Source: Bacteroidota bacterium
Lineage (GTDB): Bacteria; Bacteroidota; Bacteroidia; Bacteroidales; PUMT01
Reading direction: 5' to 3'
NCBI GenBank assembly: GCA_037446695.1
Contig: JBBIHY010000011.1
Coordinates: 23,172-87,171 of the forward strand
Length of the DNA: 64,000 nt
A model generated the notes under the pieces. It made no database searches. It was not told the DNA's origin and was given only the letters and a program-made list of their open reading frames with translations. Positions 11,890-36,205 of the stretch are shown piece by piece; position 1 is the first letter of the stretch; each line of letters starts with the position of its first letter. Position numbers and translations under genes: made by a program.

Positions 11890-14553
11890 ATGAAGTTTTT
11901 CAGGAGGTTTGTCATATTTCTTTTTATTCTCATTCTTGTTATTATTTCAGCAGGTATTGCTGTATCCTATTTGTATGCCGACGAGGTAAAGCAAAGGATT
12001 ATCGGAGAAATCAATAAAAACCTCAGGGCCGAAATAGCTGTTGAGGATATAAGGTTTTCTGTTCTTCGCAAATTTCCGAATGCCTCGCTTGAGTTTAAGA
12101 ATATATTAATTCGTCCGGTAAGGGAATTCAATAAGAGAGATTTCCCGGAACGAACAGCAGACACGCTCCTATATGCAGGCAGCTTTTTTTTGGAATTCAA
12201 TCTCAGAAGTCTTCTCACAAGGAATTATGTTCTCACCAGTCTGCATCTAACTAACGGAAATGCAAATGTGTTGCTGGATCAGAGAGGCATTGAAAATTTC
12301 CGGTTCTGGGACAGTGGAGGGGAAAGCAGAGAAGATTTCCGAATAGACCTTCAGGATGTAAAATTGAACAATGTCAATCTTTACTTTTCTGATTTGCAAA
12401 ACGATATTAACCTGCATGCCCAAATAACCAGGCTTTATCTGAAAGGGAATTTTTCTGCGTATCAGTATAATTTGCAGGCAACCACAGATTTTACAATTGA
12501 TTCCCTGTATTATGAAGAATTTATTCTGAACGGTCCGCTCCCTGTTTACGCGGCAATGGAACTCGATGTGCTTGGCGACCTTTATAAAATTACGAAGGGG
12601 AATCTGCAACTTGGCAAAATGAAATTTCTTGCTGAAGGTGAGTATTTTGGAGCTGGAATCAACCGGATTGACATCGGGATTGTAGGGGACGGGCTGGATT
12701 TAAAATATGCCGGTTCTTTTTTGTCGGGTGAGTACCTGAGATTTTTCCAGGAGTATAACCCATACGGACTGATGGTTTTCAATGCCAGACTAAAGGGTAG
12801 GTACAGCAGGCATGAACGTCCGGAACTGAAAGGTGATTTTGCCCTTCAGGATGCTGGATTAAGCCGCAGGGGGATAAAAACCCGGCTGCACCAACTGGCA
12901 GTAAAAGGATCGTTTTCCAACGGGCCTCTCAGAAATCCTCTTTCTTATGTGTTCGAACTCGAATCTTTTTCAGGCTACATGGGAAATTCCGCTTTCAGGG
13001 GAGACATGAAAATTGAAAATTTGATTACTCCTTACTTAAAAGGATATTTGTTTTTTGACGGGGCAATGGACGAACTGGCTGATTTTTATAAACCCGATGA
13101 TATTGAGAAAATTTCCGGAAAAATGAAGGTGAGTGTTCAGGTGAATGGTTACCTGAATAACCTGTCAGAACTTTCCCTTGAAAGCCTTCCCCAGTCCATA
13201 CCTGAAGTAAAAGTTGAAATAAGCAACGGAACGCTGTTTCTGAAGGAAGGACCATGGCAGTTTGAATCCATAAACGGGCGTATGCATCTTACCAGGAAAC
13301 TAATACTTGACAACCTTGCTTTTATCAACAGGGGGAATAGCTTTGTTGTGAGCGGAGAGCTATATTCAGACGGGGTGTATGTTTTTCGCAAAGGGGCAGT
13401 TCTCAACCTGAAGGGAACCGTGCATTCGGATTACCTGAATCTGGATGTACTTCTGCCCGATCCTGATTCCAGGCCAGATGAGAAAAAGCTGCTGGTATTT
13501 CCCGAAAAGCTGAACTCCTCGGTATTTTTTTCCTGTAATGAGGTTATTTTCAGGAACTTCAAGGCCAAAAATATCAAAGGAAATGTAAGTTATAAGCCCA
13601 GGATGTTTACACTCAACTCCATTTCCTTTCAATCTATGCAGGGTAACGCCGCCGGCGGCGGAGCAATTATTCAGAATTTGAACCATGATTTTCTGTTCCA
13701 GGCTCAAACCAGTTTTCAAAATATCAATATCAGTGATTTGTTTCACTCTTTCAATGAATTCGGGCAAACATTTATTACCAGCAAGCACCTGCGGGGTTCA
13801 CTTTCGGGGACACTGAACTTCATCTCTGAATGGAACAATGATTTTGACCTGGTTACCGAAAAAACAGTGGCCGACAGCAGGTTGCTCATAACAGGTGGCG
13901 AGCTCGTCAATTTTGAGCCAATGAACGCACTTTCAGGATTCATTGAAGTTGATGAATTAAAGCACATAAGGTTTTCAAAACTCGAAAATGAGATTTTTAT
14001 CAGGAATCAAATTGTTACCATACCCAAAATGGATATTCAGTCCTCTGCTTTCACCATCACTCTTTCAGGTACACATAATTTTGATAATCAGTTTACTTAC
14101 CGGATGCGGGTATTATTATCCGATGTACTTTTCGCAAAGGCACGCAGGGCAAAAAAGGAGAACGAACAATATGCTGTACAGGATGATGGACTGGGTCGCC
14201 CAACACTTCCCCTGATTATTGCCGGCACCCCCGATAACTTTAAAATAAATTATGACAGGAGAGCCGCTGCCGAAATTATCCGACAGGGATTTGAAGAAGA
14301 AAGAAAAACCCTGAGGCGTATGCTGAACGAAGAATTCGGCTGGTTCTCCCGTGATTCAGCTTCGGTAAAATCAGTTGAAACGCCTCAGCAAACACCTGTT
14401 TACAAAATTGAGTGGGAGGAAGTTGACACAATTAAACCAGGAAAATCTGCAACCAAACAGACAGAGAAGCAGGAACTTCCAAAAAAGAAATTTCAGATTA
14501 CCTGGGAAGAAGAGGAATTGCCAGATACCACGAAACGAAAGAAAAGTTCTTAA
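11890..14553 (+). CDS. AsmA-family outer-membrane assembly/lipid-transport-like protein
   Basis: The 887-aa ORF has an N-terminal TM anchor and an AsmA-like N-terminal pattern (KQRIIGEINKNLRAEIAVEDIRFSVLRKFPNASLEFKNI). A long beta-rich body follows, then a K/E-rich tail. Confidence 0.7.
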   Translation: MKFFRRFVIFLFILILVIISAGIAVSYLYADEVKQRIIGEINKNLRAEIAVEDIRFSVLRKFPNASLEFKNILIRPVREFNKRDFPERTADTLLYAGSFFLEFNLRSLLTRNYVLTSLHLTNGNANVLLDQRGIENFRFWDSGGESREDFRIDLQDVKLNNVNLYFSDLQNDINLHAQITRLYLKGNFSAYQYNLQATTDFTIDSLYYEEFILNGPLPVYAAMELDVLGDLYKITKGNLQLGKMKFLAEGEYFGAGINRIDIGIVGDGLDLKYAGSFLSGEYLRFFQEYNPYGLMVFNARLKGRYSRHERPELKGDFALQDAGLSRRGIKTRLHQLAVKGSFSNGPLRNPLSYVFELESFSGYMGNSAFRGDMKIENLITPYLKGYLFFDGAMDELADFYKPDDIEKISGKMKVSVQVNGYLNNLSELSLESLPQSIPEVKVEISNGTLFLKEGPWQFESINGRMHLTRKLILDNLAFINRGNSFVVSGELYSDGVYVFRKGAVLNLKGTVHSDYLNLDVLLPDPDSRPDEKKLLVFPEKLNSSVFFSCNEVIFRNFKAKNIKGNVSYKPRMFTLNSISFQSMQGNAAGGGAIIQNLNHDFLFQAQTSFQNINISDLFHSFNEFGQTFITSKHLRGSLSGTLNFISEWNNDFDLVTEKTVADSRLLITGGELVNFEPMNALSGFIEVDELKHIRFSKLENEIFIRNQIVTIPKMDIQSSAFTITLSGTHNFDNQFTYRMRVLLSDVLFAKARRAKKENEQYAVQDDGLGRPTLPLIIAGTPDNFKINYDRRAAAEIIRQGFEEERKTLRRMLNEEFGWFSRDSASVKSVETPQQTPVYKIEWEEVDTIKPGKSATKQTEKQELPKKKFQITWEEEELPDTTKRKKSS

Positions 14554-15728: not shown

Positions 15729-16982
15729 ATGTCCCCGCAGAAAAAAAACAAAAAGTTTGAACTACTTGCCCCGGCTGGGTCATATGAGTCTCTCATGGCT
15801 GCCATACAGGGTGGGGCTGATGCAGTATATTTTGGTGCCGGTGAATTAAATATGCGTGCGCATTCCAGCAGGAGTTTTAGCCTGAATGATCTGAAAAGAA
15901 TTGCAGGTATAGCTACAAAAAACGGGGTTCGCGCTTATCTGACGGTGAATACCGTGGTTTATGATGAAGAGGTTTCCCGGATGAAGAAAATTGTAACAGC
16001 GGCCAAAAAAGCAGGTATTTCAGCTATAATTGCATCCGACCAGTCTGTTATACACTATGCCCGTTCCCATGACATGCCGGTACACATTTCTACCCAGGTG
16101 AATATAAGCAACTCGGAGGCTGTGAGGTTTTACTCCGATTTCGCCGATGTAATGGTGCTTGCCAGGGAATTGAATCTCAAACAGGTGAAGAAAATAGCAG
16201 GGACCATTATAAAGCAACAAATCAAGGGCCCGTCAGGAAATCCTGTCCGCCTTGAGATGTTTGTGCATGGTGCTTTATGCATGTCCGTTTCAGGCAAATG
16301 TTACCTCAGCCTGCATGAGCACAACCATTCGGCAAACAGGGGAGCCTGCCTGCAATCCTGTCGAAGGGCATACCTTGTGGAGGATAAGGAAACTGGTACT
16401 CAACTGGAAATTGAGAATGAATTCATTATGTCGCCCAAGGACCTGTGTACTATTGGGTTCCTTGATAAAATAATGGGAGCAGGAGCCACAGTTTTCAAAA
16501 TTGAAGGAAGAGCCCGCTCTCCTGAGTATGTGAAGACCGTGACACAATGCTACAGGGAGGCAATTGATTCAGTGATGGAAGGAACCTATTCCCGGGAGAA
16601 AATTGAAAACTGGAACAGCCGTTTGAATTCAGTTTTCAACCGTGGATTCTGGGATGGATATTACCTGGGAAAAAGGATGGGAGAATGGAATGATTCCTAT
16701 GGATCAAAAGCCAGTAAAAAGAAAGTCTATATTGGCAAAAACACTAATTATTATTCGAAAATAGGTGTTGCCGAATTCCTGATTGAAAACAAAACCCTGA
16801 AACAGGGAGATGAAGTTCTAATTATTGGACCCTCCACCGGTGTGGTGGAGGTAATCATTGATGAAATCAGGACAAGTGAAGGCCCTCGGGAGTTGGTTAA
16901 GAAAGGAGATGTCTGTGCCTTTAAAGTAAAAGAGCTTATCAGGAAATCTGATAAACTCTATAAGCTGGTTGAGGTGAAATAG
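15729..16982 (+). CDS. peptidase U32 family protein
   Basis: The 417-aa ORF has the U32 N-terminal pattern (ELLAPAGSYESLMAAIQGGADAVYFG) and a conserved Cys-rich region (CMSVSGKCYLS). Confidence 0.88.
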   Translation: MSPQKKNKKFELLAPAGSYESLMAAIQGGADAVYFGAGELNMRAHSSRSFSLNDLKRIAGIATKNGVRAYLTVNTVVYDEEVSRMKKIVTAAKKAGISAIIASDQSVIHYARSHDMPVHISTQVNISNSEAVRFYSDFADVMVLARELNLKQVKKIAGTIIKQQIKGPSGNPVRLEMFVHGALCMSVSGKCYLSLHEHNHSANRGACLQSCRRAYLVEDKETGTQLEIENEFIMSPKDLCTIGFLDKIMGAGATVFKIEGRARSPEYVKTVTQCYREAIDSVMEGTYSREKIENWNSRLNSVFNRGFWDGYYLGKRMGEWNDSYGSKASKKKVYIGKNTNYYSKIGVAEFLIENKTLKQGDEVLIIGPSTGVVEVIIDEIRTSEGPRELVKKGDVCAFKVKELIRKSDKLYKLVEVK

Positions 16983-17400: not shown

Positions 17401-18090
17401 CTAATTCCTGATAGAATCGTAATATTCCAATACCATGGCAACCTCCTCTGGATTTCTAATACTTAATTTGTTTGATTTAATAAAGGATAAAACCTCTTTA
17501 TTTCTGTCCTTTAGGACTGCCAGCAAATGTTTTTCCTTTAAGGGTATTTTGCTGGAAATACCTTCAGGGCTAACAATCCAGTAAACACTAACTGGGGCGT
17601 ACCTTTTTTCAATTTTGGATTGGCTGTAACCAGGAACAATCTCCTCAGACAGCCTGATAGAAATCTTTTCAAGGAGTTTTGACTGACCATCATAGTGGAC
17701 AATATAATAAGCCAGAGGATTATACTTCTCTCCCACATTCCAGAAACCATTCCTGAAAACTATCTCATTGAAGCCGGACTCAGGGAGAAACACACATTTT
17801 CTAACCACAGAATTTTTTAAAACAAAAATTTCTCCTTCATGCAATACTTCGAATAAATCATCAAGTGCGTTGTACCTGAGTTTTAGTTCGGTAGTTCGCT
17901 CTGACATGGCATTCTCAACAAATCCGGTTCTCCATTCTTCATTAAAATAAGCAGAACCTGAAATTTCAATTTTTTTGGAAGTTTGAATTGCCCTGCCTGT
18001 TGTAAACTCGGTAATAAATTGTGCTGAGGTGGGCAGATGGGATAAAAAAAATATTGTTGCAGTAAAATAAAAATAGGATATTATTTTCAT
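17401..18090 (-). CDS. secreted hypothetical protein
   Basis: The 229-aa ORF has a signal peptide (MKIISYFYFTATIFFLSHLPTSAQ). I recognise no motif. Confidence 0.6.
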   Translation of the reverse strand: MKIISYFYFTATIFFLSHLPTSAQFITEFTTGRAIQTSKKIEISGSAYFNEEWRTGFVENAMSERTTELKLRYNALDDLFEVLHEGEIFVLKNSVVRKCVFLPESGFNEIVFRNGFWNVGEKYNPLAYYIVHYDGQSKLLEKISIRLSEEIVPGYSQSKIEKRYAPVSVYWIVSPEGISSKIPLKEKHLLAVLKDRNKEVLSFIKSNKLSIRNPEEVAMVLEYYDSIRN

Positions 18091-18138: not shown

Positions 18139-18846
18139 CTATAACCTGCCAATCTCATTCAGGTACATATCCCGGATTTGTTTCATTCGTTCGGGTGACT
18201 GGTCCCTGTCAAAAATCCGCACAAAATCCAGAATCATATTTTCACGGTACATATAACCGATTGCAGCATCAAATATCTTGTTGTCAATGTTGTGCTTTAT
18301 CTTCATGGTGATATCGTAAAACTCCTTCCATTTTAACCTCTTTGGAAGCAGGATAAAATACTGCTCAGTTTGAACCAGGTTTTTAAAAATTCCTTCATCA
18401 ACTTCTGCTATCTTAAAATACTTGTTCAGGACAATCCTGCCGGATTCATGAATTTTTTTGGCCCGGGCAAACTTAATTCCCTTATCCTTCAAAAGAGCCT
18501 GTATCCTGGCGATGTGGTCAAAGCACGACAACCCGATTAGTCTAATACAATGGTATTTTTTTGTGTAAATTCTGATATACCCTGTGGTTGCATCACAGGA
18601 AAAACCGGTTTCCTTTTTCAGCTTTCCAATTGTCCTGCTCAATGCTACCCTGTTGTATTTTTTGTCGGTAATAATAAAAATGGACCTGGGCACAGAATCA
18701 TTTGGTATGTCTTGCCCGAAATATCCTGGAAAGGGTTCGCTGTTCTCCAGAACAAGTGTGTTTGGCATGATATTATAATCAATACTGGAAAGAGTTTCTT
18801 CTTTGATAATTCTTCCCAGGGTTTCTATCGTTTCCTGTGGTTTCAT
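18139..18846 (-). CDS. uncharacterised protein, paralog A (internally duplicated module)
   Basis: The 235-aa ORF is collinear with the neighbouring 231-aa ORF and shares the motif NTLVLENSxPFPGYxG. The motif FDAxxG..(I/V)RI occurs in both halves. Confidence 0.7.
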   Translation of the reverse strand: MKPQETIETLGRIIKEETLSSIDYNIMPNTLVLENSEPFPGYFGQDIPNDSVPRSIFIITDKKYNRVALSRTIGKLKKETGFSCDATTGYIRIYTKKYHCIRLIGLSCFDHIARIQALLKDKGIKFARAKKIHESGRIVLNKYFKIAEVDEGIFKNLVQTEQYFILLPKRLKWKEFYDITMKIKHNIDNKIFDAAIGYMYRENMILDFVRIFDRDQSPERMKQIRDMYLNEIGRL

Positions 18847-18988
18847 AGCAATTGGTTGAAATGAACGGTATTCTTGATCAGACAGGAATAGCCAAAATAC
18901 AACAAAAAAGGAATCAAATCAAGCAGATACCTCTTTTTAGATTCGAAATAAGGAAAAAAAGCCTCAATCCGGTTTCGTGACCTGATTT

Positions 18989-19684
18989 TCACTTTCTTGC
19001 CAATTCATCAAGATATTTACTCCTGATTTCGGATAACAAATGAACACCGGGCTCCTTCGTAAAAATCCTAATCATATCCGTAATGGTTTTCCCGTAAAGA
19101 ATGCCAAGTGCCGAATCAAAATTGTAAATCTCTACATTCTGTTTAATGAAGGCAGTTGCCTTTTCAAATGCCGGCCATTCGGGCTTGGTCGGAATTTTCA
19201 GGTAAAACATCATAGGGTTCTCGGTGTCCCTGAAAATATTGTCTCCAAATTGATCCAGGGTAAAATGTTTGTAAACTTTAATTAAAGCCTGATCACGGAT
19301 GGATTTTTTCTTGTGGAATTTAATGCCTTTTTCCAGTAACTCCTGTTGAAGGTGGGAAATGTAGGCGAAACTCTCCAGGTCTTTAATACGGATAAAATGC
19401 AGGAGTTCGTTCTGCATTGTGGTTTCCCCGAAGGATGCATCAAAACGGTGAGGGAAGCTTCTTCTTATTTCACAGGCCTTTCTGATGATATCATCGCCCT
19501 GGTATTTTTGATCAGTGACAAAAAACAGATAATTCGGCTTGGTGTCAAGGGGGATATTATTGCCGTGATAACCGGGAAATGGAGCAGAATTCTCCAGTAC
19601 CAGGGTATTTATCAGAGTATTATCTGTAACTGTGCGTAATTCCTCCATTTTCAGAATATAACCGAAACCTTCCAGCTTTTTCAT
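18989..19684 (-). CDS. uncharacterised protein, paralog B (internally duplicated module)
   Basis: The 231-aa ORF is a full-length paralog of 18139-18846. It contains RFDASFG..FIRI and NFDSALG..MIRI. Confidence 0.7.
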   Translation of the reverse strand: MKKLEGFGYILKMEELRTVTDNTLINTLVLENSAPFPGYHGNNIPLDTKPNYLFFVTDQKYQGDDIIRKACEIRRSFPHRFDASFGETTMQNELLHFIRIKDLESFAYISHLQQELLEKGIKFHKKKSIRDQALIKVYKHFTLDQFGDNIFRDTENPMMFYLKIPTKPEWPAFEKATAFIKQNVEIYNFDSALGILYGKTITDMIRIFTKEPGVHLLSEIRSKYLDELARK

Positions 19685-19776
19685 TTTTTTGTAGTTTGAA
19701 CTTTAACAAAGGTATAAAAATATTTATCAAACTACATAGTTTGAAGGGTTCATATGATAGCAGACAGGGAGGTTTT

Positions 19777-20802
19777 TTATAATGATTTGGCAAACCGGAT
19801 GATTGCTTTTGCATTGTTTTGCGGGTCAATGGAATTCATTGGTAATTTATAAACCTCGCCATTTTCTCTTTTTTCCAGCCCAAAATTATAGGCTCTGTCA
19901 TAGTATTCCAGGATCATTGAAGCTGCCCGCTCAAAATTGCCATTCAGAATTGCTTCAACGGCCGGTTGCAGGTTTTGATTGCCAAATCGATTTTTTATTT
20001 TTTCAAGCGATTCAATTAATTTTTCTTTTGGGAAACAGGAATATTCTTCTACAAGCTTTTTAATTCTCTCCTGCTTGGATACTTCAATTTTTAAAACTTT
20101 TGCCAATCGCATCTGGTTAAAAAGTTCATCCGGGATAAATATGGTTCCAATTTTTTTGCTTTCATCCTCCAGCCAGATTATCCTGTCAGGGTCATAAACC
20201 CTCATTTGCTCATACAGATTATTTTCAAACTGTTCGGTACTTGGCTGAACTCCCCTTCCCAGTCCGCCAAATGCCGATCCTTTATGATTTGCAAGAGATT
20301 CAAGGTCTATAACCTGTTGCCCCAGCTTTTTTAATTCCCTCAGGATATCCGATTTTCCTGAGCCGGTCATACCTCCCAGAATCAGCAGATGAAATTGTTT
20401 TCTCAGGTAATTTTTAAGAGCTGCACGGTAGGATTTGTATCCTCCCTTCAGGATGAAGCACTTTATTCCGGCCGTTTCAAAAAGCCAGGACATACTTGAA
20501 CTTCTCATTCCTCCTCTCCAGCAGTGAACAACAAGTTGATTGTTTTTTGCTATTTCACTGGCTCGCATTACCATGCCTGACATTTTAGGGCCAACGATGT
20601 CAAGACCTTTTAATACTGCTTCATAGCTACCCTTTTGTTTGTACGTGGTACCTATAAGTGCTCTTTCGTCATCTGAAAAGATGGGGATATTATACGCTCC
20701 GGGAATATGCCCCTGACCGAACTCGGAAGGGGATCGCACATCGATTAGAGGAAGTTCTCCGCAATTATTGAGATAGTTTGAAAAATCAATTATCTCTGCC
20801 AT
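19777..20802 (-). CDS. selU: tRNA 2-selenouridine synthase
   Basis: The 341-aa ORF has an N-terminal rhodanese domain with active-site HCWRGGMRS and a Walker A motif (GGMTGSGKS). This is the MnmH/YbbB architecture. Confidence 0.88.
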   Translation of the reverse strand: MAEIIDFSNYLNNCGELPLIDVRSPSEFGQGHIPGAYNIPIFSDDERALIGTTYKQKGSYEAVLKGLDIVGPKMSGMVMRASEIAKNNQLVVHCWRGGMRSSSMSWLFETAGIKCFILKGGYKSYRAALKNYLRKQFHLLILGGMTGSGKSDILRELKKLGQQVIDLESLANHKGSAFGGLGRGVQPSTEQFENNLYEQMRVYDPDRIIWLEDESKKIGTIFIPDELFNQMRLAKVLKIEVSKQERIKKLVEEYSCFPKEKLIESLEKIKNRFGNQNLQPAVEAILNGNFERAASMILEYYDRAYNFGLEKRENGEVYKLPMNSIDPQNNAKAIIRFAKSL

Positions 20803-20847: not shown

Positions 20848-23676
20848 TTAAACAGGTTTCGAAAACCACTTGATAAGTAGATTTTTGATATTATCCACCC
20901 TCACAGGCTTGCTCAAAAAGTCATTCATGCCTACCTCCATTGCCTTGGTTCGGTCTAATTCGCTCACATTTGCCGTGAGGGCAATAACAGGCATGGCAAA
21001 ACCAAGTTTACGGATTTCATATGTGGCATCAAAACCGGTTTTAACGGGCATTCTGATATCCATGAAAATAATGTCGTATTGTTTTTCTCGAACCATATTA
21101 ACGGCCTTCATTCCGTTTGGGGCTATATCGATTTCAAATCCCAGGTTTTTGAAGATAATCTGCGCAACACGCTGATTGATTGCATTATCCTCTGCCACAA
21201 GTATAGAAATATCTTGTCTTATTTTTTTCAGGGTAATTGGTTTTGATACAGGTATTTCAATATGGGTAAAGCTGTTCTGGATAAAATCAAAAATCTCGGA
21301 GGAATCGTATGGATAAAGCAGGTAATAATCCACGCCCATTTTTTGGCATTTTACAAGATTGCCCGGACGATTGTTTGAACTAATCATAATGACCAGGTAG
21401 TTTTGAGAAAGCTCATTGATATACAAATCCCTTGCGATTGTGAATCCATTTTGTGCGGGAGTGTCCATTATGACAATGAGGGAATAATTGTCGGATTTAT
21501 CACTTAGCCTTGCCTTAAGAAGAGGAATTGAGGAATCATTGAATTGTGTAATCTCTGATTTTATTTCCATATCTTTCAGAATTTTCTGTAAAGAAACATC
21601 CTTTCTTTTTGGGTCATGGAATATCAGTACCCTTATATCGGAGTAATTCCTTATATGGCTGAAATCAATATTTTTCTCCGGGCCCTTATTTGAATAAACC
21701 TTCATGGTAAAAGAAACCATGGTTCCGGGATTCTTCCCTGACGCAATCAGGGAGGGTGATTTCACTTCAAAATCTCCGTTGAGCAGTTGTATAAGTTTTC
21801 TGGTTTTCAGCAGGCCTTCGGGGATATTTTGCCTTTCATATGCTTCCTTAACAGGTGATTCGCTGTTTGCTATGGCTGCAATATGCGGGGAAATACCAAC
21901 CCCATCATCCTGAACTGCAACTTTCAATCTGAGACTTTCTGTTTCGGAATGTTCTGCTTTAAAAGATATGAGAATCTTTTCCCCTCCGGAATGCTTAATA
22001 GCATTACTGACAAGATTGGTAAGTATTTGTCTTAAAAGAAAGGGGTCTCCAACAATTTCTTCCGGGATATCCGCTTCCATCTCAGTAAAAATGCTCATAT
22101 TTTTTTCTTCGCACATGGCTGAAAAGGAATTACTTACAATTTCCATTTCGTTTTCCAAAACAAAAGGAATTTCTTCAACAAAGATTTTCCCGATTTCGGC
22201 CTTTGAAAAATCAATCAAATCATTGATGACTGAAACGAGCAACTCTGCTGATTTCTTAATGATTTCTATTTTTTCCCTGTAGTCAGGGGAAAGATTCTTC
22301 TCGCTGCTAAGAGTTTCAGAAATGGAAAGAATTCCGTTCAGCGGGGTGCGAATATCCTGACTGATTTTGGCAATGAAATCAGTTTTTGAAGAGTTTGCTG
22401 CCGCCTCGGCTTTTCTGGCGTTCTCCAGGGGAGTTATGTCAATAAATGCCAGTATATAACTTTTCTCTCCCTGAATCTCAAAGGGAATTTCCTTGAAGTA
22501 AAGGAGAATTTCATTGTCATTTTCGTCATAATACACATAGAGAGAGGTTTCTTCATTAACCCCCTTAAATGAAAAAGGAATTTCCCTGAAGTGAAAGAAA
22601 AGACCCTGGGATTCCTTTCCTATCAGGAATTTTTCATCTGCAATTTTCAGGATTTCAAGAGCTGCGCGGTTAACCGACTGGATGTTTTTGTCTTCTGAGG
22701 TATAAAAAATCCCTATTGGCAGGGAGTCCAAAATTTTCTTTAACTTTCTTTCTGATTGTTTCAGGGTAAGTTCTTCCTGCTGCTTCCTTTGCAATACAGC
22801 CAGAAATATCAGGATAATAAAAATAAGAATCAGAAATGTTGCAGCGGCCAGGATAATAATATTCAAAATAACCGAAGTGATAATTTTGTCAGTTTTCAGT
22901 GAAAAAAGAACCCCCAGTTCTTCTGTAAACAAAACCACCGGATAGTAGGAAGTAAGCACTTTCTCTCGTCCCTTGGAAAGATGCACCACCTGTAACAGGG
23001 AACCATCCTTCCCGTCGGAAAGATTCCCTGTTATGATGTCAATTTGCTGAAAACGGATTTCTTCTGAGGAATGATTATGCAGCCTGGTCGTTCCGTCATG
23101 ATCTAAAAGAGCCTGCCATTGCGTGTCTTCAAGATGATAATTTTCAAAAATGCTTTTTGCCAACTGATTAACTGTAAGCGTTGCCTGTACATTTAATTCC
23201 ACCTTATTCCCTTCACTGAATGAGGGCAAAGCATATATCCAGTCACCGTTCTTTCTCTCAAAATGCTCACGGTTGTGCAGGTTTTTGTGGTTCCTGGGCT
23301 GGTATTCATCTGAAAGTATCTGGTTACTCCTGTCTTTTGAAAGGCTGTAGACCTGATTATTACCATTGAATACCTGGATGGATGAAACAAGGTGTGAGTA
23401 TTTAGAAAACAATACTTCGAGTTGCCTGGCTACAATTGTTTTTGAATCAGGATCAGTAAAAAAATCATTGATATTTTTAGTAAAAAGAATGCGATGCAAA
23501 TCATTTTGAAAATCAGCAACTTTTCGTTCAATTTCCCATCCGCAAATTTGTGTTTGCTTTAATAAAAGATCTTTTTGGTAGTCGAGTTGCTGCCTGTAAA
23601 TGTGGAGGTAAAAAAACACATTTACCAGTACAAGGAGGGCAACGATAAGTAAAAACAGGGAATAAAGTTTTTTCAC
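20848..23676 (-). CDS. hybrid sensor histidine kinase / response regulator with degenerate H-box
   Basis: The 942-aa ORF runs: N-terminal TM, periplasmic domain, TM, PAS-like region, HisKA-like (FIAKISQDIRTPLNGI), HATPase_c (NLVSNAIKHS, DDGVGIS), a receiver-like domain, then an intact receiver (FMDIRMP, ALTA, SKP). Confidence 0.85.
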   Translation of the reverse strand: MKKLYSLFLLIVALLVLVNVFFYLHIYRQQLDYQKDLLLKQTQICGWEIERKVADFQNDLHRILFTKNINDFFTDPDSKTIVARQLEVLFSKYSHLVSSIQVFNGNNQVYSLSKDRSNQILSDEYQPRNHKNLHNREHFERKNGDWIYALPSFSEGNKVELNVQATLTVNQLAKSIFENYHLEDTQWQALLDHDGTTRLHNHSSEEIRFQQIDIITGNLSDGKDGSLLQVVHLSKGREKVLTSYYPVVLFTEELGVLFSLKTDKIITSVILNIIILAAATFLILIFIILIFLAVLQRKQQEELTLKQSERKLKKILDSLPIGIFYTSEDKNIQSVNRAALEILKIADEKFLIGKESQGLFFHFREIPFSFKGVNEETSLYVYYDENDNEILLYFKEIPFEIQGEKSYILAFIDITPLENARKAEAAANSSKTDFIAKISQDIRTPLNGILSISETLSSEKNLSPDYREKIEIIKKSAELLVSVINDLIDFSKAEIGKIFVEEIPFVLENEMEIVSNSFSAMCEEKNMSIFTEMEADIPEEIVGDPFLLRQILTNLVSNAIKHSGGEKILISFKAEHSETESLRLKVAVQDDGVGISPHIAAIANSESPVKEAYERQNIPEGLLKTRKLIQLLNGDFEVKSPSLIASGKNPGTMVSFTMKVYSNKGPEKNIDFSHIRNYSDIRVLIFHDPKRKDVSLQKILKDMEIKSEITQFNDSSIPLLKARLSDKSDNYSLIVIMDTPAQNGFTIARDLYINELSQNYLVIMISSNNRPGNLVKCQKMGVDYYLLYPYDSSEIFDFIQNSFTHIEIPVSKPITLKKIRQDISILVAEDNAINQRVAQIIFKNLGFEIDIAPNGMKAVNMVREKQYDIIFMDIRMPVKTGFDATYEIRKLGFAMPVIALTANVSELDRTKAMEVGMNDFLSKPVRVDNIKNLLIKWFSKPV

Positions 23677-23771: not shown

Positions 23772-24701
23772 TCACCTGTATTTTTCCTCAGTGTCTTCAA
23801 AATAAATACTCAGGTAACTCTCATATCTCGTCAGGCTGATTTTCTCAGCTTTCACTGCCTCGATGACCTGACAGCCCGGCTCATTAATGTGAAGGCAATT
23901 GTAATACTTACAGAGATGAGAAGCCTGGAATATTTCAGGGAAAAAATGAAAAATTTCTTCTTTATCCATATTAACCATACCAAATCCTTTGATACCCGGT
24001 GTATCAATAACAAATCCACCGAATTTCAATTCGTGCATTTCAGAAAATGTGGTGGTGTGTTTCCCTTTCAGGTGGTAATCAGAGATTTCGCTGGTTTTCA
24101 GGTTTAATTCGGGATCAATTGCGTTTACCAGGGTGGATTTACCAACGCCCGAATGACCTGAAAGCAATGTAACTTTTCCTGTAATTAGTTTTGTAAAATC
24201 CTGCAATCCCTCACCTGATGCTACAGATGTTTTATGACATGGATAGCCGATGGATTCGTAGACCTTGCATAATTTCAGCAATTCGCCTTGTTCATCGGCA
24301 TTGTAAAGGTCGGTTTTGTTAATGAGTAGTATGGCAGGAATCCTGTAGGCTTCTGCTGTTGCCAGGAACCTGTCAATAAACCGCAGGGTGGTTTTTGGGT
24401 AGTTAATGGTAATAATGAGAATTGCCTGGTCAATATTGGCCGCAATGATATGAGTCTGCCTGGAAAGATTGGAAGATTTCCGTATAATGTAATTTTTCCT
24501 GTCAGCCACTTCGGTAATCACTCCGGTCTTGTCCCCCCCCCTGACCAGAATATGAACCCTGTCACCAACTACTACCGGGTTGGTACTTTTGGTACCTCTT
24601 GTGCGTAGTGCACCCCTGATTTTACATTGTAAAACTCCCTCACCGTCAGTTCTTACCAGGTACCAGCTCCCTGTGCTTTTAATTACAACCCCTTGGATCA
24701 A
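23772..24701 (-). CDS. rsgA: ribosome small-subunit-dependent GTPase A
   Basis: There is an OB-fold N-terminus and a circularly permuted GTPase (NKTDL ... GHSGVGKSTL ... DTPG). The C-terminal zinc motif is CKYYNCLHINEPGC. Confidence 0.92.
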   Translation of the reverse strand: MIQGVVIKSTGSWYLVRTDGEGVLQCKIRGALRTRGTKSTNPVVVGDRVHILVRGGDKTGVITEVADRKNYIIRKSSNLSRQTHIIAANIDQAILIITINYPKTTLRFIDRFLATAEAYRIPAILLINKTDLYNADEQGELLKLCKVYESIGYPCHKTSVASGEGLQDFTKLITGKVTLLSGHSGVGKSTLVNAIDPELNLKTSEISDYHLKGKHTTTFSEMHELKFGGFVIDTPGIKGFGMVNMDKEEIFHFFPEIFQASHLCKYYNCLHINEPGCQVIEAVKAEKISLTRYESYLSIYFEDTEEKYR

Positions 24702-31498: not shown

Positions 31499-32017
31499 AT
31501 GGTGTCATGCATGGCTATAAAACCTATAATGCTCCGCACCGATAACGGCAGCCAGTTTATCGCCCACGGATTGCGTAACTTCTGCAAAAATAATGGGATT
31601 GCACAGGAGTTCACCCTCGTGGCCACACCAGAGGAGAATTCCTACGTGAAAAGCCTGTTCTCACTGGTGGAAAATGAAGTAATCCAGCGCTGTGAGTTTG
31701 AAAGCCTATACCACGCCAGAGACATATTCCAGAGGTATTTCAACTGGCATAACCACAAAAAAAGAAGGCATACTTTAGGTCGGATCAGTCCTGCAGAGTA
31801 TTGGAATACAGTCTTTAATTTGCATCTTGTTAAGCCACCAGCAGCGCTAAGTGGAGAATTTGTCAAGGGCGATGATACCAATAAAAAAATAAACAATTTA
31901 TCATCGCTCGTATTACCCTTGACAAATTCGAAACGTGGGCTATCTTTGCTTAACGAGGATGACAATGAAAACGTCCTAAACCTTTTTGAAAAATCTGTCC
32001 AAAGAATAGGGGGTTAA
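31499..32017 (+). mobile_element. 5'-truncated IS3-family transposase (integrase-core C-terminal remnant)
   Basis: Only the distal part of the rve/DDE core is present (LRTDNGSQFIAH ... PEENSYVKSLFSLVENEV ... YFNWHNHKKRRHTLGRISPAEYW). There is no N-terminal HTH or the first two catalytic Asp residues. An unusual ~70-aa tail follows. Confidence 0.75.
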
Positions 32018-32106
32018 GACAAAACCATATGAAATATTATTAAAATCTCTATTTTGTCTACGAGCTGACATTATTAAGAGAATTAATAAAGAGCAAACAG
32101 TTATTT

Positions 32107-32495
32107 TTTTCATCCGTAAATAATTTTTTGATTAAGGTCGGATGGAACTCCATGTTTGCTATTTTCATTGGTGTTTGTGTTTATTCGCAAACATGTTCGT
32201 TTCATCATTACAAAATATTTATATTGTTAATTACCAATATATTACCTTCTAGCTTTTAACAGTCATTATCGAGCGGATGGAACACCCATATTTTGTTCAT
32301 TGGTGTTTGTGCTAGCTGTCTTACATGGGTGTTTCATCCGTATAAAATATTTATGTTGTTAATTACAAGCATGTTACACCTTGTCGTTTAATGCTCTTTA
32401 ACAAACGGATGCCTGCCTGCCGGCAGACAGGGAACACCCATGTTGCTGATTTTGTTATTATTGTGTTTGTATTTGCAAAAACACGGGTGTTTCAT
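32107..32495 (+). repeat. tandem array (3 units) of structured intergenic repeat
   Basis: The hairpins lie at 32139-32205, 32274-32340 and 32406-32495. They are separated by conserved ~65-nt AT-rich linkers. Unit 2 has 16-nt arms, CGGATGGAACACCCAT and ATGGGTGTTTCATCCG. Unit 3 carries the insert CCTGCCTGCCGGCAGACAGG. Confidence 0.9.
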
Positions 32496-32507
32496 AATAT
32501 GACTGAT

Positions 32508-32927
32508 TTATTCAAAGATTTCAGATTTTTCAATTCCTAAAATTGCATTCTTACGGGTAATCAAGTATATGACTAGGTGAATGATAATACCAATCCCCCA
32601 GAAAAAAGCTGCGACATAAACAATTCTAATGCTTTCATAGTGTGGATGAAAACCAAATAAAAACCATAAGACTGACACCGTATTGAAAAGCAAGTATGTT
32701 ACAAAATGAAAACGAAATCCAATGTCATATAAAGGTAGAGTTTCATAATCCCTTTTGCCAAATAGCCAACCTATGAAAAGATTATAGAAAAAATAGATTA
32801 CCGCAATAATCCATACCAGAGTATATGTGCGATTTTCTAAAAAGTAACTCAAACCATACCAAAAAACTATGGCACCTATGAAAAAGAAAATCCCAAAATA
32901 CTTAAGGTTTTTTGTTAAAGCTTTCAT
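32508..32927 (-). CDS. small polytopic membrane protein (PadR operon partner)
   Basis: The 139-aa ORF has about 4 TM helices and starts 2 nt after the PadR stop. Confidence 0.6.
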   Translation of the reverse strand: MKALTKNLKYFGIFFFIGAIVFWYGLSYFLENRTYTLVWIIAVIYFFYNLFIGWLFGKRDYETLPLYDIGFRFHFVTYLLFNTVSVLWFLFGFHPHYESIRIVYVAAFFWGIGIIIHLVIYLITRKNAILGIEKSEIFE

Positions 32928-32929
32928 TT

Positions 32930-33301
32930 TTAGCCCTCCTTGTTTATTAAGTTTTTAATGCGATTGTTAAAAAACAGAGAAATATTTCTATCAATAAAAT
33001 TTTCTAGTAGTGTATGACCTACTTCGGTCAAGAAGTAGTATTTACGTTCAGGACCTTTGTTGCCTTCGCCTGTTTCAAAATCAACAACTCCTATGTGTTG
33101 AAATTTTCTAAGTGTTCGATAAAGGCTTTGACTTTCACAAGTCATTGTATGATTAGACTTTTCTTCAACAAAGCCTTTTATTTCATCAACATATTTTTTC
33201 CCATCTTTCAATGAAAGAAAAATCCATAGAGTCAATTGCCCCTTTTTATAGGTTTCCTCCCAGGCTGATAATAATTCAGATAATAGTTTGTTTTCACTCA
33301 T
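32930..33301 (-). CDS. PadR-family transcriptional regulator
   Basis: The winged-helix PadR pattern is present (GQLTLWIFLSL..GKKYVDEI ... SQSLYRTLRKFQHIGVV ... KYYFLTEVG). The start is taken at the internal ATG 33301 because a -33/-7 promoter lies inside the longer ORF-track extension. Confidence 0.8.
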   Translation of the reverse strand: MSENKLLSELLSAWEETYKKGQLTLWIFLSLKDGKKYVDEIKGFVEEKSNHTMTCESQSLYRTLRKFQHIGVVDFETGEGNKGPERKYYFLTEVGHTLLENFIDRNISLFFNNRIKNLINKEG

Positions 33302-33337
33302 AATGTAATCATTTAGTATTAAACAATATGTTTTGTA

Positions 33338-33370
33338 CAAAGGTAATACATTCTTTTTAAGAAAAACAAA
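33338..33370 (-). promoter_or_regulatory. putative Bacteroidota promoter of PadR operon (-33 TTTG, -7 TACCTTTG)
   Basis: On the minus strand, TTTG sits at 33370-33367 and TACCTTTG at 33345-33338. The -7 box lies 37 nt upstream of the ATG. Confidence 0.45.
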
Positions 33371-33775
33371 TAAATTTGAAAAAATAATCACCCGCCTTTA
33401 AAAAGGGAATAACCGGGTTAAGGATAACCGGCAGCTTTATCCACCTGGCAAGCAATGCGAACCGTACAGCACACATCATGAGGATTGGAGCATTGAAACC
33501 CGGTTTGATTACTGTTCAACCCTCCCTTTTGCTTCGGCATCCCGATTTATGGGGACGGGTTTCACAGCATCAATCCCGAGCCCGATGTTGCATTCGCCCT
33601 ACCGGTTTGACAATCAGTTAAATCCTTAAGATAACGTTCCAATAAATTTGACCCTTAGTCGATATTCCGTTCAAAATGAGACATTCCTGAGACTTTCCTG
33701 TAAAATTTTGTGTTATTTATTCATTTTTCTCAGATTATTATACAAAATAGGATATCTTCACAGAAATTATAAATA

Positions 33776-34843
33776 ATGAAATCACTACAAATTGGGAATC
33801 TGGTAATAGCAGTACCAGTTGTTCAGGGTGGAATGGGGGTAGGAATTTCTCTTTCCGGTCTAGCTGCTGCTATTGCCAATGAAGGTGGTATAGGTGTAAT
33901 ATCAAGTGCCGGTCTAGGTCTTTTATATAAAAATTTCTCCGATAATTTTCTTATTGCAAGCATCCACGGATTAAAAGAAGAGATCCGCAAAGCACGGGAA
34001 AAAACAAAGGGTATAATTGGTGTTAATGTATTGGTAGCTATGACAAACTTTGCGGATATGGTCCGAACTGCAATTTCTGAAAAGATCGATATTTTAATTG
34101 CAGGAGCAGGTCTGCCTCTCGATTTACCATCTTTTTTAAAAAAAGACAGTACTACTAAACTTGTTCCTATTGTTTCTTCAGCCAGAGCTGCTAAAATAAT
34201 ATGTGAGAAATGGAAAACAAGTTACAATTATCTTCCTGACGCAGTTATCGTGGAAGGACCAAAAGCGGGTGGTCACCTTGGTTTTAAAGAAGAGCAGATC
34301 AATGACAATGACTATTCGCTTGAAAAACTGGTACCTGAGATCGTCAACGAATTAAAAGTATTTGAAAAAGAAAATAATCAGTCAATCCCACTAATTGCTG
34401 CCGGAGGAATATATACAGGCGGAGATATTAACGAGATATTTAAGCTCGGAGCATCCGGTGTACAGATGGGTACAAGATTTGTAACTACTGAAGAATGTGA
34501 CGCCTCTCCGGCTTTTAAGCAGAGTTACATAGATGCCGAAGAAAAGGATATTGAGATTATTAAAAGTCCGGTCGGAATGCCTGGCAGGGCAATATTTTCC
34601 AGTTTCTTACAAAAGGTCAGGGATGGTAAAAAACAACCCAAAAACTGTCCGTTCAAGTGTATAAAGACATGTGACATTTCAAAAAGTCCTTACTGTATAA
34701 TAATTGCTCTCATAAATGCGCTCAAAGGTAATTTCGAAAATGGTTTCGCCTTTGCCGGTTCTAATGCTTTCAAAGCAACAAAAATTTCTTCAGTAAAGGA
34801 AGTATTTCAGTCCCTAATAAGGGAATATAAAGAAAATAAATAA
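33776..34843 (+). CDS. NAD(P)H-dependent flavin oxidoreductase, nitronate monooxygenase / FabK-like family
   Basis: The 355-aa TIM-barrel NMO pattern is present (PVVQGGMGVGIS, VIVEGPKAGGHLG, AAGGI..G, GVQMGTRF). Confidence 0.8.
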   Translation: MKSLQIGNLVIAVPVVQGGMGVGISLSGLAAAIANEGGIGVISSAGLGLLYKNFSDNFLIASIHGLKEEIRKAREKTKGIIGVNVLVAMTNFADMVRTAISEKIDILIAGAGLPLDLPSFLKKDSTTKLVPIVSSARAAKIICEKWKTSYNYLPDAVIVEGPKAGGHLGFKEEQINDNDYSLEKLVPEIVNELKVFEKENNQSIPLIAAGGIYTGGDINEIFKLGASGVQMGTRFVTTEECDASPAFKQSYIDAEEKDIEIIKSPVGMPGRAIFSSFLQKVRDGKKQPKNCPFKCIKTCDISKSPYCIIIALINALKGNFENGFAFAGSNAFKATKISSVKEVFQSLIREYKENK

Positions 34844-34965
34844 CTGTTCGTAGTCTGTTCCTGAATTTATGTTAGCAAATACTTGGTAAAGGATCTTTTA
34901 AATTTATTTATAAAATAATACAAAATATCAATACAATAGATTCTAAAAGGTTAAAATCTTGATAA

Positions 34966-35289
34966 TTAAACACAACGCACCATAACACGGACAATATGGG
35001 GAAGTTGTATTGTCACACTTTTTGCTTTTGCTCCTGCACTCAAGACAGATTTGTAATGGTTCTTACACCCGGACACGCGTATCTGCCCGTAATAAAACCT
35101 TGTATACCGTGATAGTTTTCTGACTCCGATCAACTTTGTACCGTGACACACATAATACTTAATAAAACCTGTACCCGGACGGCAAAAAGTGCACCATGGT
35201 TTGTTCATTTCGACTGTGTGCCGGGACTCTTCCCCGAAGAATACTTTTTGGTCACAGCCTCCATTCTCAAACCAACACAACCTCCCCAT
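34966..35289 (-). CDS. hypothetical Cys-rich small protein (doubtful)
   Basis: The 107-aa ORF lies in a locally GC-richer patch and has 7 Cys, including a CxxC. I recognise no family. It may be non-coding or a gene remnant. Confidence 0.25.
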   Translation of the reverse strand: MGRLCWFENGGCDQKVFFGEESRHTVEMNKPWCTFCRPGTGFIKYYVCHGTKLIGVRKLSRYTRFYYGQIRVSGCKNHYKSVLSAGAKAKSVTIQLPHIVRVMVRCV

Positions 35290-35594
35290 ATTGCCGGGCC
35301 GATGGTATGCAATACACTTCGCTTAGCGGCTGCTTCATTTAAAAATTGAAGCACTTAGAACAGGGCAGGCAGATCGAATAGCTTTTTTAACTAACTTGTA
35401 CACAAAAATCAGGATGATTTTTAAATTCCAGAGCCCGATGCCTGTAATTTTAGAACTGCAGCAAAAACATGAAATCATTGTGAAATCGAATCTGTTAAAT
35501 AATTGTTTTTTGTAACTTTGATTTTTAGACGATAAAAGATGATTGATATAAAAAAACAAATTGACTATGGATTAAGGGAGCTGGCGATGATTTA

Positions 35595-35918
35595 TTGACA
35601 GCTGAATTGTTAATTCGGGAAAGCAGAATTTTACATGGATTGTTTTTCTGTCACTTAGTGATAGAGAAAGCGATTAAAGCTCATATTGTTAAAACTTCTA
35701 AAGAAATTGCCCCTAAGTCGCACAACTTGATTTATTTATCCGAGAAAGCCAACTTAACATTTGATAATGACACCGAAATCTTTCTGGGAATTTTAATGAG
35801 GTATCAGTTACTAGGTAGATACCCTGATTATAATCCAGTAATACCAGATATTATAAAAGTTAATGGATACTTTGAAAAAACTAAAACTTTATTACAATGG
35901 CTAATAGAGAAATTGTAG
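35595..35918 (+). CDS. HEPN-domain protein (toxin-like partner of MNT), 5' end frameshifted or internally initiated
   Basis: The HEPN helical pattern is present (FFCHLVIEKAIKAHIV ... PKSHNLIYL ... LLGRYPDY). An upstream ATG at 35539 encodes MIDIKKQIDY in another frame, and the main frame continues as WIKGAGDDLLTAELL. Confidence 0.7.
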   Translation: MTAELLIRESRILHGLFFCHLVIEKAIKAHIVKTSKEIAPKSHNLIYLSEKANLTFDNDTEIFLGILMRYQLLGRYPDYNPVIPDIIKVNGYFEKTKTLLQWLIEKL

Positions 35919-36205
35919 ATATTTTGAAAAAGTATATTTTAGTTTTACGTTCAGAGGGAATAAACATTGATAAAGCATATTTATATGGCAGCTATTTGTC
36001 AAATACAGCAACTGATGAGAGCGATATTGATATTCTGATTGTTACTGATAATGAAGACGATTATTTAATTGGTAAAATATGGAGTTTGACAAGAAAGGTA
36101 AATTCAAAAATTGAACCTTATCTAGTTGGAAAAAGAAGGTTTATTAGTAATAATGACTCTCCGTTAATTGATTTAGTAAAAAGGACTGGAATAGAAATAT
36201 CATAA
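35897..36205 (+). CDS. minimal nucleotidyltransferase (MNT, antitoxin-like)
   Basis: The 102-aa ORF has the Pol-beta-type NTase motif (LYGSYLSN...ESDIDILIV). It overlaps the HEPN gene by 22 nt. Confidence 0.8.
   Translation: MANREIVDILKKYILVLRSEGINIDKAYLYGSYLSNTATDESDIDILIVTDNEDDYLIGKIWSLTRKVNSKIEPYLVGKRRFISNNDSPLIDLVKRTGIEIS

Follow-up and report, generated by a model that had tools for sequence, protein, structure and literature searches.

A tandem pair of internally duplicated proteins downstream of selU belongs to an undescribed Bacteroidales protein family

Tandem paralogues at the locus

The stretch of DNA analysed here (the window) covers 64,000 nucleotides of contig JBBIHY010000011.1 (positions 23,172 to 87,171, forward strand) in assembly GCA_037446695.1 of a Bacteroidota bacterium. 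Its minus strand carries two adjacent open reading frames (ORFs), which encode paralogues B and A, the subject of this work. In the order of transcription, the genes are a hybrid sensor kinase, selU, B, A, and a 229-amino-acid ORF, and the successive intergenic gaps are 45, 92, 142, and 48 nt (Table 1). The BLAST alignment of A with B spans both proteins, with 34% identity, 56% positives, and one gap (E = 4e-47), and both carry the motif NTLVLENS(E/A)PFPGY(F/H)G. The original prediction, made from the letters of the stretch alone, had described these co-oriented ORFs of 235 and 231 amino acids as collinear paralogues that share this N-terminal motif. The end-to-end alignment confirms the paralogy, and the shared motif is the best-conserved stretch of the whole family.

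Table 1. Coordinates of the paralogues, their parts, and neighbouring genes in the window
Feature	Coordinates	Strand	Description
Paralogue B	18989..19684	-	231-amino-acid ORF; conservative copy, PFPGYHG kept, closest to the single-copy family members
Paralogue A	18139..18846	-	235-amino-acid ORF; derived copy, PFPGYFG, CDAT replacing FDAS
B, N-terminal repeat	19322..19684	-	Residues 1-121; long N-terminal strand, PFPGYHG loop, then beta-alpha-beta-beta-alpha (hhalign, DSSP of the AlphaFold2 model, translation)
B, C-terminal repeat	18992..19321	-	Residues 122-231 (hhalign; AlphaFold2 model of the half alone)
A, N-terminal repeat	18475..18846	-	Residues 1-124 (collinear with B; coordinates checked)
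A, C-terminal repeat	18142..18474	-	Residues 125-235 (collinear with B; coordinates checked)
B, conserved motif NTLVLENSAPFPGYHGNNIP	19550..19609	-	Flexible loop, N-terminal repeat only
A, conserved motif NTLVLENSEPFPGYFGQDIP	18703..18762	-	Counterpart of the B loop motif (family alignment)
selU/mnmH, tRNA 2-selenouridine synthase	19777..20802	-	NCBIfam NF008750, E = 1.1e-114, 383 bits against a cut-off of 241
Hybrid sensor histidine kinase/response regulator	20848..23676	-	NCBIfam BarA/ArcB-like matches below cut-off
Orphan 229-amino-acid ORF	17401..18090	-	Signal-peptide-like N-terminus MKIISYFYFTATIFFLSHLPTSAQ; outside the conserved unit
Element TACCTTTG	19707..19714	-	Fits the Bacteroidetes -7 promoter consensus TAnnTTTG; lies 22 nt before the start codon of B
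U32 family gene	15729..16982	+	Best NCBIfam matches TrhP and UbiU, both below cut-off
RsgA gene	23772..24701	-	30S biogenesis GTPase
887-amino-acid protein gene	11890..14553	+	N-terminal transmembrane segment; no NCBIfam match

Extent of the family

An exhaustive HMMER profile search of 1.84 billion representatives (clusters at 50% identity) placed 418 clusters in the family at E ≤ 1e-3, 218 of them at E ≤ 1e-30. Most of the best 150 of these 418 matches are 225-260 amino acids long and align end-to-end; the exceptions include a few shorter fragments. A word-indexed search returned 9 relatives of A and 42 of B (those of B at E ≤ 1e-3). A profile search with 80 diverse members led to 110 proteins from Bacteroidota/Bacteroidales metagenome-assembled genomes (MAGs), all of them named only "hypothetical protein". 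None of the 110 has a Pfam domain, and no fusion architecture occurs among them or among the HMMER matches listed. A scan of one genome per GTDB species gave 122 loci, of which 80 were kept. All of these come from MAGs; apart from single records for Chlorobiota and Thiohalospira, nearly every label is Bacteroidales or Bacteroidota. Metagenome scans for the divergent subfamily described below and for close orthologues found no new members.

The original prediction had assigned the proteins to no described family, and the searches agree. Scans of A and B with Pfam, NCBIfam, PADLOC, and PHROGs gave nothing usable, and the same holds for a Pfam scan of 48 aligned members. In searches of the PDB by sequence, single sequences, a full-length profile, and a half-domain profile all gave zero matches at E ≤ 10. 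An anti-phage defence or phage protein family was considered and rejected, as neither A nor B matches PADLOC and the lone PHROGs match covers 25 residues of a family of unknown function (E = 0.0058). The proteins thus form an undescribed family, small to medium in size, of stand-alone proteins of about 235 amino acids that is restricted to environmental Bacteroidales/Bacteroidota. This is an example of protein "dark matter", in which about 400 clusters, strong conservation, and a confident structural model exist, yet there is no Pfam or NCBIfam model and no solved relative. The family merits a definition at the level of a domain of unknown function and an experimental structure.

A and B have no transmembrane segment (the maximum 19-residue Kyte-Doolittle mean is 0.8-1.14), and their N-termini, judged by eye, do not resemble a signal peptide. 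Both proteins are therefore probably cytoplasmic, as the original prediction had proposed.

Retention of the second copy

The family gene is single-copy in most genomes. A-type orthologues (P0001-P0008) form 8 clusters, are 64-96% identical to A, and are always full length. They are found on the same contigs as B-type orthologues (P0010-P0021), which indicates that the A-B pair characterises one lineage and that the second copy, A, is specific to it.

One or both ORFs might be decaying duplicates or spurious calls with no function. This could be suspected because A has diverged at four otherwise conserved positions and lies on a long branch away from B in a neighbour-joining tree. However, the four substitutions (H40F, I98L, D153N, and Y161F) are fixed in the A clade, and selective constraint, judged from the retention of conserved residues, is evident in both copies. 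B keeps 29 of the 29 family-conserved positions and A keeps 26 of the 29. The fixation of the substitutions together with the 26 retained positions shows that A, although somewhat derived, is constrained and not decaying. In addition, the A orthologues are full length, and another assembly encodes a protein with 100% identity to B. The decay or spurious-ORF explanation is thus already largely refuted and barely credible.

In the neighbour-joining tree, which was not bootstrapped, A is not sister to B. A may reflect an old duplication, fast evolution, or acquisition from elsewhere. A second tandem duplication of the family occurs in another Bacteroidales MAG (L027, 3296-4009 and 4092-4811). Unlike the A/B pair of the window, both L027 copies fall within one single-copy clade of the tree, and this duplication is apparently independent.

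Internal duplication and predicted structure

The original prediction had also aligned the two halves of each protein by eye. Taken alone, this alignment is insignificant, as BLASTP between the halves of one protein gave E = 3.9 for A and 0.2 for B, but it is supported by comparison of family profiles. With 48 homologues, hhalign matched the N-halves to the C-halves over 70 columns (P = 0.003). When the profiles were built from 193 family members (Neff about 5.9), the match had a probability of 96.9% and E = 1.5e-10; it spanned 77 columns in local alignment and about 100-104 in global alignment. The halves pair in the register read by eye, with YLFFVTD opposite MFYLKIP, FDASFG with FDSALG, and FIRIKD with MIRIFT. 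Together with the paralogy of A and B, this result supports the earlier view that the locus holds four copies of one module. The module had been described as a beta-alpha-beta unit of about 95 amino acids; the repetition stands, whereas the unit measures about 105-115 amino acids and its core is beta-alpha-beta-beta-alpha after extra strands. In the AlphaFold2 model of B, the same series of strands and helices occurs twice, with the core elements offset by 107-109 residues. All members of the family carry this ancient internal duplication, with a module length of about 110 amino acids.

The AlphaFold2 model of B, built from a 48-sequence alignment, has a mean predicted local distance difference test score (pLDDT) of 89.6 and a predicted template modelling score of 0.85. 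DSSP assigns strands (E) and helices (H) in the N-half as E3-18, E29-32, E52-57, H63-76, E82-90, E93-101, and H106-118, and in the C-half as E130-147, E150-153, E159-164, H170-183, E190-197, E202-208, and H213-230. Confidence is poor only at the PFPGYHG loop (residues 35-45), where pLDDT is below 50; this loop of the N-half is about 14 residues longer than its C-half counterpart. The C-terminal repeat of B modelled alone reached a pLDDT of 85.7, but its first 21 or so residues lost their strand and fell to a pLDDT of 64-72, compared with about 95 in the full-length model. The loss of this strand suggests that, in the predicted structure, the first strand of the C-half pairs with the other half.

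Mean-field direct coupling analysis (DCA) was performed on 336 sequences (Meff about 243). Within the halves, couplings were found between helices A and B (70-116, 177-224), in the β5-β6 hairpin (86-97, 194-204), between β4 and β6 (54-101, 162-204), and, in the N-half, between β4 and residues 121-123 (55-123, 57-121). Taken together, these couplings match the order of strands in a ferredoxin-like sandwich for each half. Between the halves, the N-terminal strand is coupled to the C-half (13-174, 10-194, 16-205/207) and to its counterpart strand (8-141, 13-132). The PFPGYH loop is also coupled to the C-half (37-170, 35-177, 40-188, and 36-217, involving W170, T177, N188, and L217), R68 is coupled to D203, and R99 is coupled to R206.

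Foldseek searches at E ≤ 1e-3 found no match for the full-length model in the PDB or in BFVD and none for the C-terminal repeat in the PDB. The PDB chains listed for the full-length model (eIF4E, lipocalins, and others) have TM scores of at most 0.25 and root-mean-square deviations (rmsd) of 9-20 Å. The weak neighbours of the single repeat are TON_0450, PII/GlnK, CutA, an ACT-like domain, and designed ferredoxin folds, with TM scores of 0.29-0.36. The pseudo-dimeric ferredoxin-like or ACT-like fold guessed in the original prediction therefore fits the order of secondary structure, the coevolving contacts, and these fold matches, although none of the matches is significant.

Conserved residues and the PFPGY loop

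Conservation was computed over 193 sequences. G8, K12, E14, G38, Y39, R99, F173, D190, and R206 are conserved in at least 95% of them, and P35, R68, K139, Y161, and A192 are added at a threshold of at least 90%. Most of the conserved positions are charged residues on strands, and the conserved charged residues are kept in both paralogue clades. In the FDA and (I/V)RI motifs, D82/R99 of the first repeat correspond to D190/R206 of the second, and the model places the conserved Asp/Arg pairs of both repeats near the predicted pseudo-dyad. In contrast, the PFPGY loop is kept in the N-half only, which indicates that the halves are functionally asymmetric. This leads to the testable hypothesis of a single asymmetric binding site at the interface of the two halves.

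The same residues could belong to an enzyme with a single active site at this interface, formed by invariant K, E, R, D, and Y residues and the mobile PFPGY loop and acting on a charged substrate of phospho- or nucleotide type, by analogy with other alpha+beta enzymes that are internally duplicated. The many near-invariant charged and aromatic residues would suit such a site (conservation reaches at least 91% of the 193 sequences for each of K12, E14, Y39, R68, R99, K139, D190, and R206). The asymmetric conservation, with the loop in one half, is also typical of one catalytic site surviving a duplication. However, no conserved His, Cys, or Ser nucleophile and no metal-binding motif is visible in the family alignments, and loop position 40 varies among H, Y, and F. 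No enzyme family was matched by sequence or fold, and no metabolic operon is consistently adjacent. An enzyme is therefore an unlikely reading, though one to be taken seriously.

Genomic context and linkage to selU

Synteny was examined by using the window neighbours as tblastn probes on the 80 species-level loci, of which 70 were informative upstream and 75 downstream. The gene immediately upstream is a co-oriented selU in 33 of the 70 loci (gaps of 57-309 nt), a hybrid histidine kinase without selU in 17, a divergent U32 gene in 6, RsgA in 2, and something else in 12. A hybrid histidine kinase lies upstream in 50 of the 70 loci, either directly (17) or with selU in between (33), and it precedes selU in almost all of the 33 selU loci that have that flank on the contig. 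Downstream, a convergent U32 gene was found in 45 of the 75 loci, a co-oriented AsmA-like gene followed by a histidine kinase in 8 (the rearranged genomes L052, L071, L076-78, L082, L083, and L085), PepE/S51 in 4, another probed window gene (orf_9206 or orf_10222) in 1, and something else in 17.

The upstream arrangement fills whole clades of the protein tree (three with selU, two with the hybrid histidine kinase directly, and one with the divergent U32 gene), the pattern to be expected if a syntenic block was inherited vertically and selU was lost or gained now and then. The family gene thus lies in a vertically inherited housekeeping block made up of RsgA, the hybrid histidine kinase, sometimes selU, and the family gene itself, and this block faces the U32, histidine kinase, AsmA-like, and PepE genes. 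In L088/89, selU accompanies the tandem pair; in L086 (GCA_002581705.1), the pair is present and selU is not. Adjacency to selU is therefore frequent but dispensable, that is, facultative.

These counts bear on the contextual interest of the original prediction, which lay in the link to selU. The proteins could be accessory factors for selenium or for tRNA wobble-uridine modification, working with SelU in selenium delivery or handling or in tRNA presentation. The 33 loci with selU as the immediate co-oriented upstream gene would suit this role, as would the RNA-related neighbours RsgA and the U32 protein resembling TrhP (below cut-off) and one divergent member that follows a TPMT-family methyltransferase. 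However, selU is not adjacent in 37 of the 70 informative loci, the clade structure of the adjacency is what inherited synteny predicts, and the tandem pair persists without selU. Moreover, the median pI of the family, 6.9, is untypical of RNA-binding proteins, and no NCBIfam selenium-related model matches A or B. No selD was found among the 24 window proteins scanned with NCBIfam; the remaining window ORFs were not checked. A selenium-utilisation gene set defined by a conserved selU neighbourhood was likewise rejected, as selU, in loci of about 12 kb, is absent from the neighbourhood wherever it is not adjacent. The proposed selU linkage thus did not hold, a dedicated selU or selenium factor is improbable, and we infer that A and B do not have this role. 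The analysis removes an unsupported selenium or tRNA-selenouridine inference that annotation pipelines or guilt-by-association could propagate. Literature searches on partners in the selU neighbourhood found nothing relevant.

Co-transcription with selU, which had been considered possible, is compatible with the short co-oriented gaps, while the -7 box TACCTTTG between selU and B hints, and only hints, that it may not be required. Matches to the -7 consensus are not enriched in the window over chance (74 against 71 expected). A sigma-70-type promoter scan gave only background, and a terminator scan detected no intrinsic terminators.

Divergent members (25-33% identical to B) lie in other genomic contexts. 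One divergent subfamily, 28-30% identical to B, has the loop PYPGYYSPQ and was studied on contigs fetched for P0256, P0258, and P0262 (L090 7001-7717, L091 7001-7714, and L094 6001-6717), which are syntenic relatives and amount to roughly one independent observation. Its gene lies 4-78 nt upstream of, and co-oriented with, an Mrp/Mbh-like cluster of at least nine genes (MnhE, MrpF, MnhG, MbhD, MbhE/MnhB, Oxidored_q2, a 1043-amino-acid Proton_antipo_M protein, NuoH-like, and NuoB-like), and this spacing suggests that they are co-transcribed. In a single case on a hydrothermal-vent contig (L092 6342-7705), the family member P0253 comes immediately after a TPMT-family methyltransferase and just ahead of an MscS channel. 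Enzymes of this family in bacteria methylate compounds of selenium and tellurium, which makes the arrangement reminiscent of the selU adjacency. One further divergent member sits before a histidine kinase, and no one partner is common to these contexts.

Such neighbours raise the alternative that the protein serves envelope or membrane complexes, or the neighbouring two-component system, as an adaptor or assembly factor. It would then bind a protein partner such as the hybrid kinase, the AsmA-like protein, or an Mrp/Mbh-type complex, and not a small molecule. The hybrid kinase upstream in most loci, the co-oriented AsmA-like and histidine kinase genes in the rearranged genomes, and the position of the divergent subfamily just ahead of the Mrp/Mbh-like genes would all agree with this role. 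However, the partners differ between clades, and since every genome comes from the same order, shared history alone may explain the synteny. Furthermore, no fusion to a signalling or membrane domain was seen among the matches listed from about 400 clusters. An adaptor is therefore quite unlikely.

Other genes of the window

The genes around the pair are housekeeping genes, namely RsgA, Xth, PepE, and the U32 protein, and farther off RecQ, TatC, ClpX, MreB, FabH, and PlsX. The original prediction had noted a secreted hypothetical protein downstream of A, possibly co-transcribed with the pair. This 229-amino-acid ORF is absent from the syntenic tandem loci examined: in L086 and L088/89, the interval from A to the U32 gene does not contain it. 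Pfam, NCBIfam, PADLOC, and PHROGs gave no match to it, and none of the 85 related loci screened has a homologue. The ORF thus appears to have been inserted, specifically in this lineage, between A and the U32 gene.

Three RNA-related genes, encoding the U32 family protein, SelU, and RsgA, lie within 9 kb. TrhP, one of the best matches of the U32 protein, is a tRNA U34 hydroxylase, and SelU performs tRNA U34 selenation; the clustering may be coincidental synteny. In syntenic relatives, a ThiF-family gene lies just past PepE. Orthologues of the 887-amino-acid protein have only faint AsmA/DUF748 Pfam matches. Its gene is conserved beside a histidine kinase gene in nearly every related locus; where rearrangement has occurred, it follows the family gene directly. 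At positions 32001-36000 of the window, the G+C content is 0.34-0.355, compared with about 0.40-0.43 in the rest, and this stretch could be an island or an AT-rich gene cluster.

Putative function

The explanation that we prefer combines the new family, a pseudo-dimer architecture, and a single-site binder, and as a whole it is plausible but tentative, falling somewhat short of probable. Each half would form a split beta-alpha-beta, ferredoxin-like sandwich, and the long N-terminal strands would cross between the halves, giving one integrated pseudo-dimer and not two separate domains. The PFPGY(H/Y/F) loop of the N-half would dock on the C-half beside a near-invariant charged cluster (K12, E14, R68, R99, K139, D190, and R206) lying around the pseudo-dyad. 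The protein would then serve as a module for binding or regulation, with a single asymmetric pocket where the two repeats meet, and its ligand may be small and charged, for example a phosphorylated metabolite or a nucleotide. By the logic of ACT and PII domains, an effector would be bound at the domain interface and the signal would pass through the mobile loop. Where two paralogues are present, it is plausible that their ligands differ or that the two assemble as a heteromer.

A single-site binder or regulator of a small charged ligand is favoured because ferredoxin-like units appear to be fused in one chain, the charged cluster lies near the predicted pseudo-dyad, and there is one conserved mobile loop. 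It is also favoured because no catalytic-type motif is present and the weak structural neighbours are effector-binding regulatory domains. On these grounds it is the most likely reading of the function, though well below an even likelihood.

Several points weigh against this binder model. The fold matches are insignificant, as the best has E = 8.8e-3 and the TM scores of 0.33-0.36 lie below the usual shared-fold threshold of 0.5. The DCA draws on about 243 effective sequences and on the same signal that AlphaFold uses, and thus does not confirm the model independently. The invariant charged cluster would fit an enzyme active site equally well. The contexts of the divergent members are heterogeneous (Mrp/Mbh-like, TPMT, and MscS) and indicate no one pathway. 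The binder model is of low confidence, and the function, with any ligand or partner, is putative.

A bolder version of the binder model can be formulated, in which the proteins represent a new fold-level family. It would be a strand-exchanged, fused ferredoxin-like pair with a unique PFPGY loop, working in the cytoplasm as an effector-binding module of a new type. It would be tied to the conserved upstream hybrid histidine kinase or to selenium or chalcogen handling (selU lies upstream in about half of the genomes and a TPMT-family methyltransferase upstream of one divergent member), and the tandem pair would act as a heteromer with split ligand specificity. This version is improbable, and nothing in the evidence at hand suggests a mechanism outside the known kinds.

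Comparison with known systems

Several known folds and families were compared with the proteins and rejected. TBP-like and eIF4E-like proteins resemble the family in their pseudo-two-fold symmetry by internal duplication, a large antiparallel sheet, and four helices. However, the TBP-like repeat is beta-alpha-beta(4)-alpha, whereas the AlphaFold2 model and DSSP give beta-alpha-beta-beta-alpha after 2-3 strands, and no TBP-like chain is found in the best 50 PDB matches; the TBP-like fold suggested in the original prediction can thus be set aside. Many eIF4E-like chains were listed, but with E = 0.2-1, rmsd of 12-14 Å, and TM scores of 0.22-0.25. The CYTH/triphosphate tunnel metalloenzymes were rejected because the N-terminal strand carries K-x-E and not ExExK and there is no CYTH Pfam match in the 48 members; Foldseek matches to AtTTM3 have a probability of 0.06-0.07 and TM scores of 0.17-0.18. 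GyrI-like/SHS2 proteins are duplications of a beta-alpha-beta-beta unit. This group was set aside as well, as no GyrI-like chain is found in the Foldseek matches and there is no GyrI-like Pfam match.

The best match of a single repeat is TON_0450 of Thermococcus onnurineus (PDB 3ueb), with E = 8.8e-3 and a Foldseek probability of 0.94 over 88 columns, and this protein is also among the matches of the full-length model. It differs from the family in that the TM score is 0.33-0.36, the rmsd is 5.7-6.6 Å, the identity is 12-14%, and there is no match at the sequence level. TON_0450 is itself an uncharacterised protein, and literature searches on it found nothing relevant.

ACT, PII, and CutA domains were found as weak Foldseek neighbours (GlnK2 3ncp; PII 1ul3, 3lf0, and 3bzq; CutA 1uku and 1p1l; ACT-like 9c7n), with TM scores of only 0.29-0.36 and E of 0.25-0.4. 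Membership in the ACT family was rejected by Pfam profile, as the only match is PF24926 ACT_ACR9_C with E = 0.14 and 12.5 bits against a cut-off of 27.4 bits; among the 48 family members, 3 matched this profile, the best with E = 0.087, far below the cut-off. Similarly, PII (GlnB/GlnK) was rejected because there is no Pfam or NCBIfam PII match and the Foldseek matches have E = 0.27-0.41 and TM scores of 0.25-0.36 over 58-74 columns. The family also lacks the PII signature motifs. Its repeat is about 110 amino acids long, compared with 70-100 in these domains, and has extra N-terminal strands that are predicted to cross between the halves. A single chain contains both of its units, but ACT and PII assemblies are made from separate chains. 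In contrast to these differences, the predicted core is alike in its beta-alpha-beta-beta-alpha order and in the pair of helices that back an antiparallel sheet. The units are predicted to be paired, which would place conserved residues at the interface between them, and the conserved flexible loop of the family recalls the T-loop of PII.

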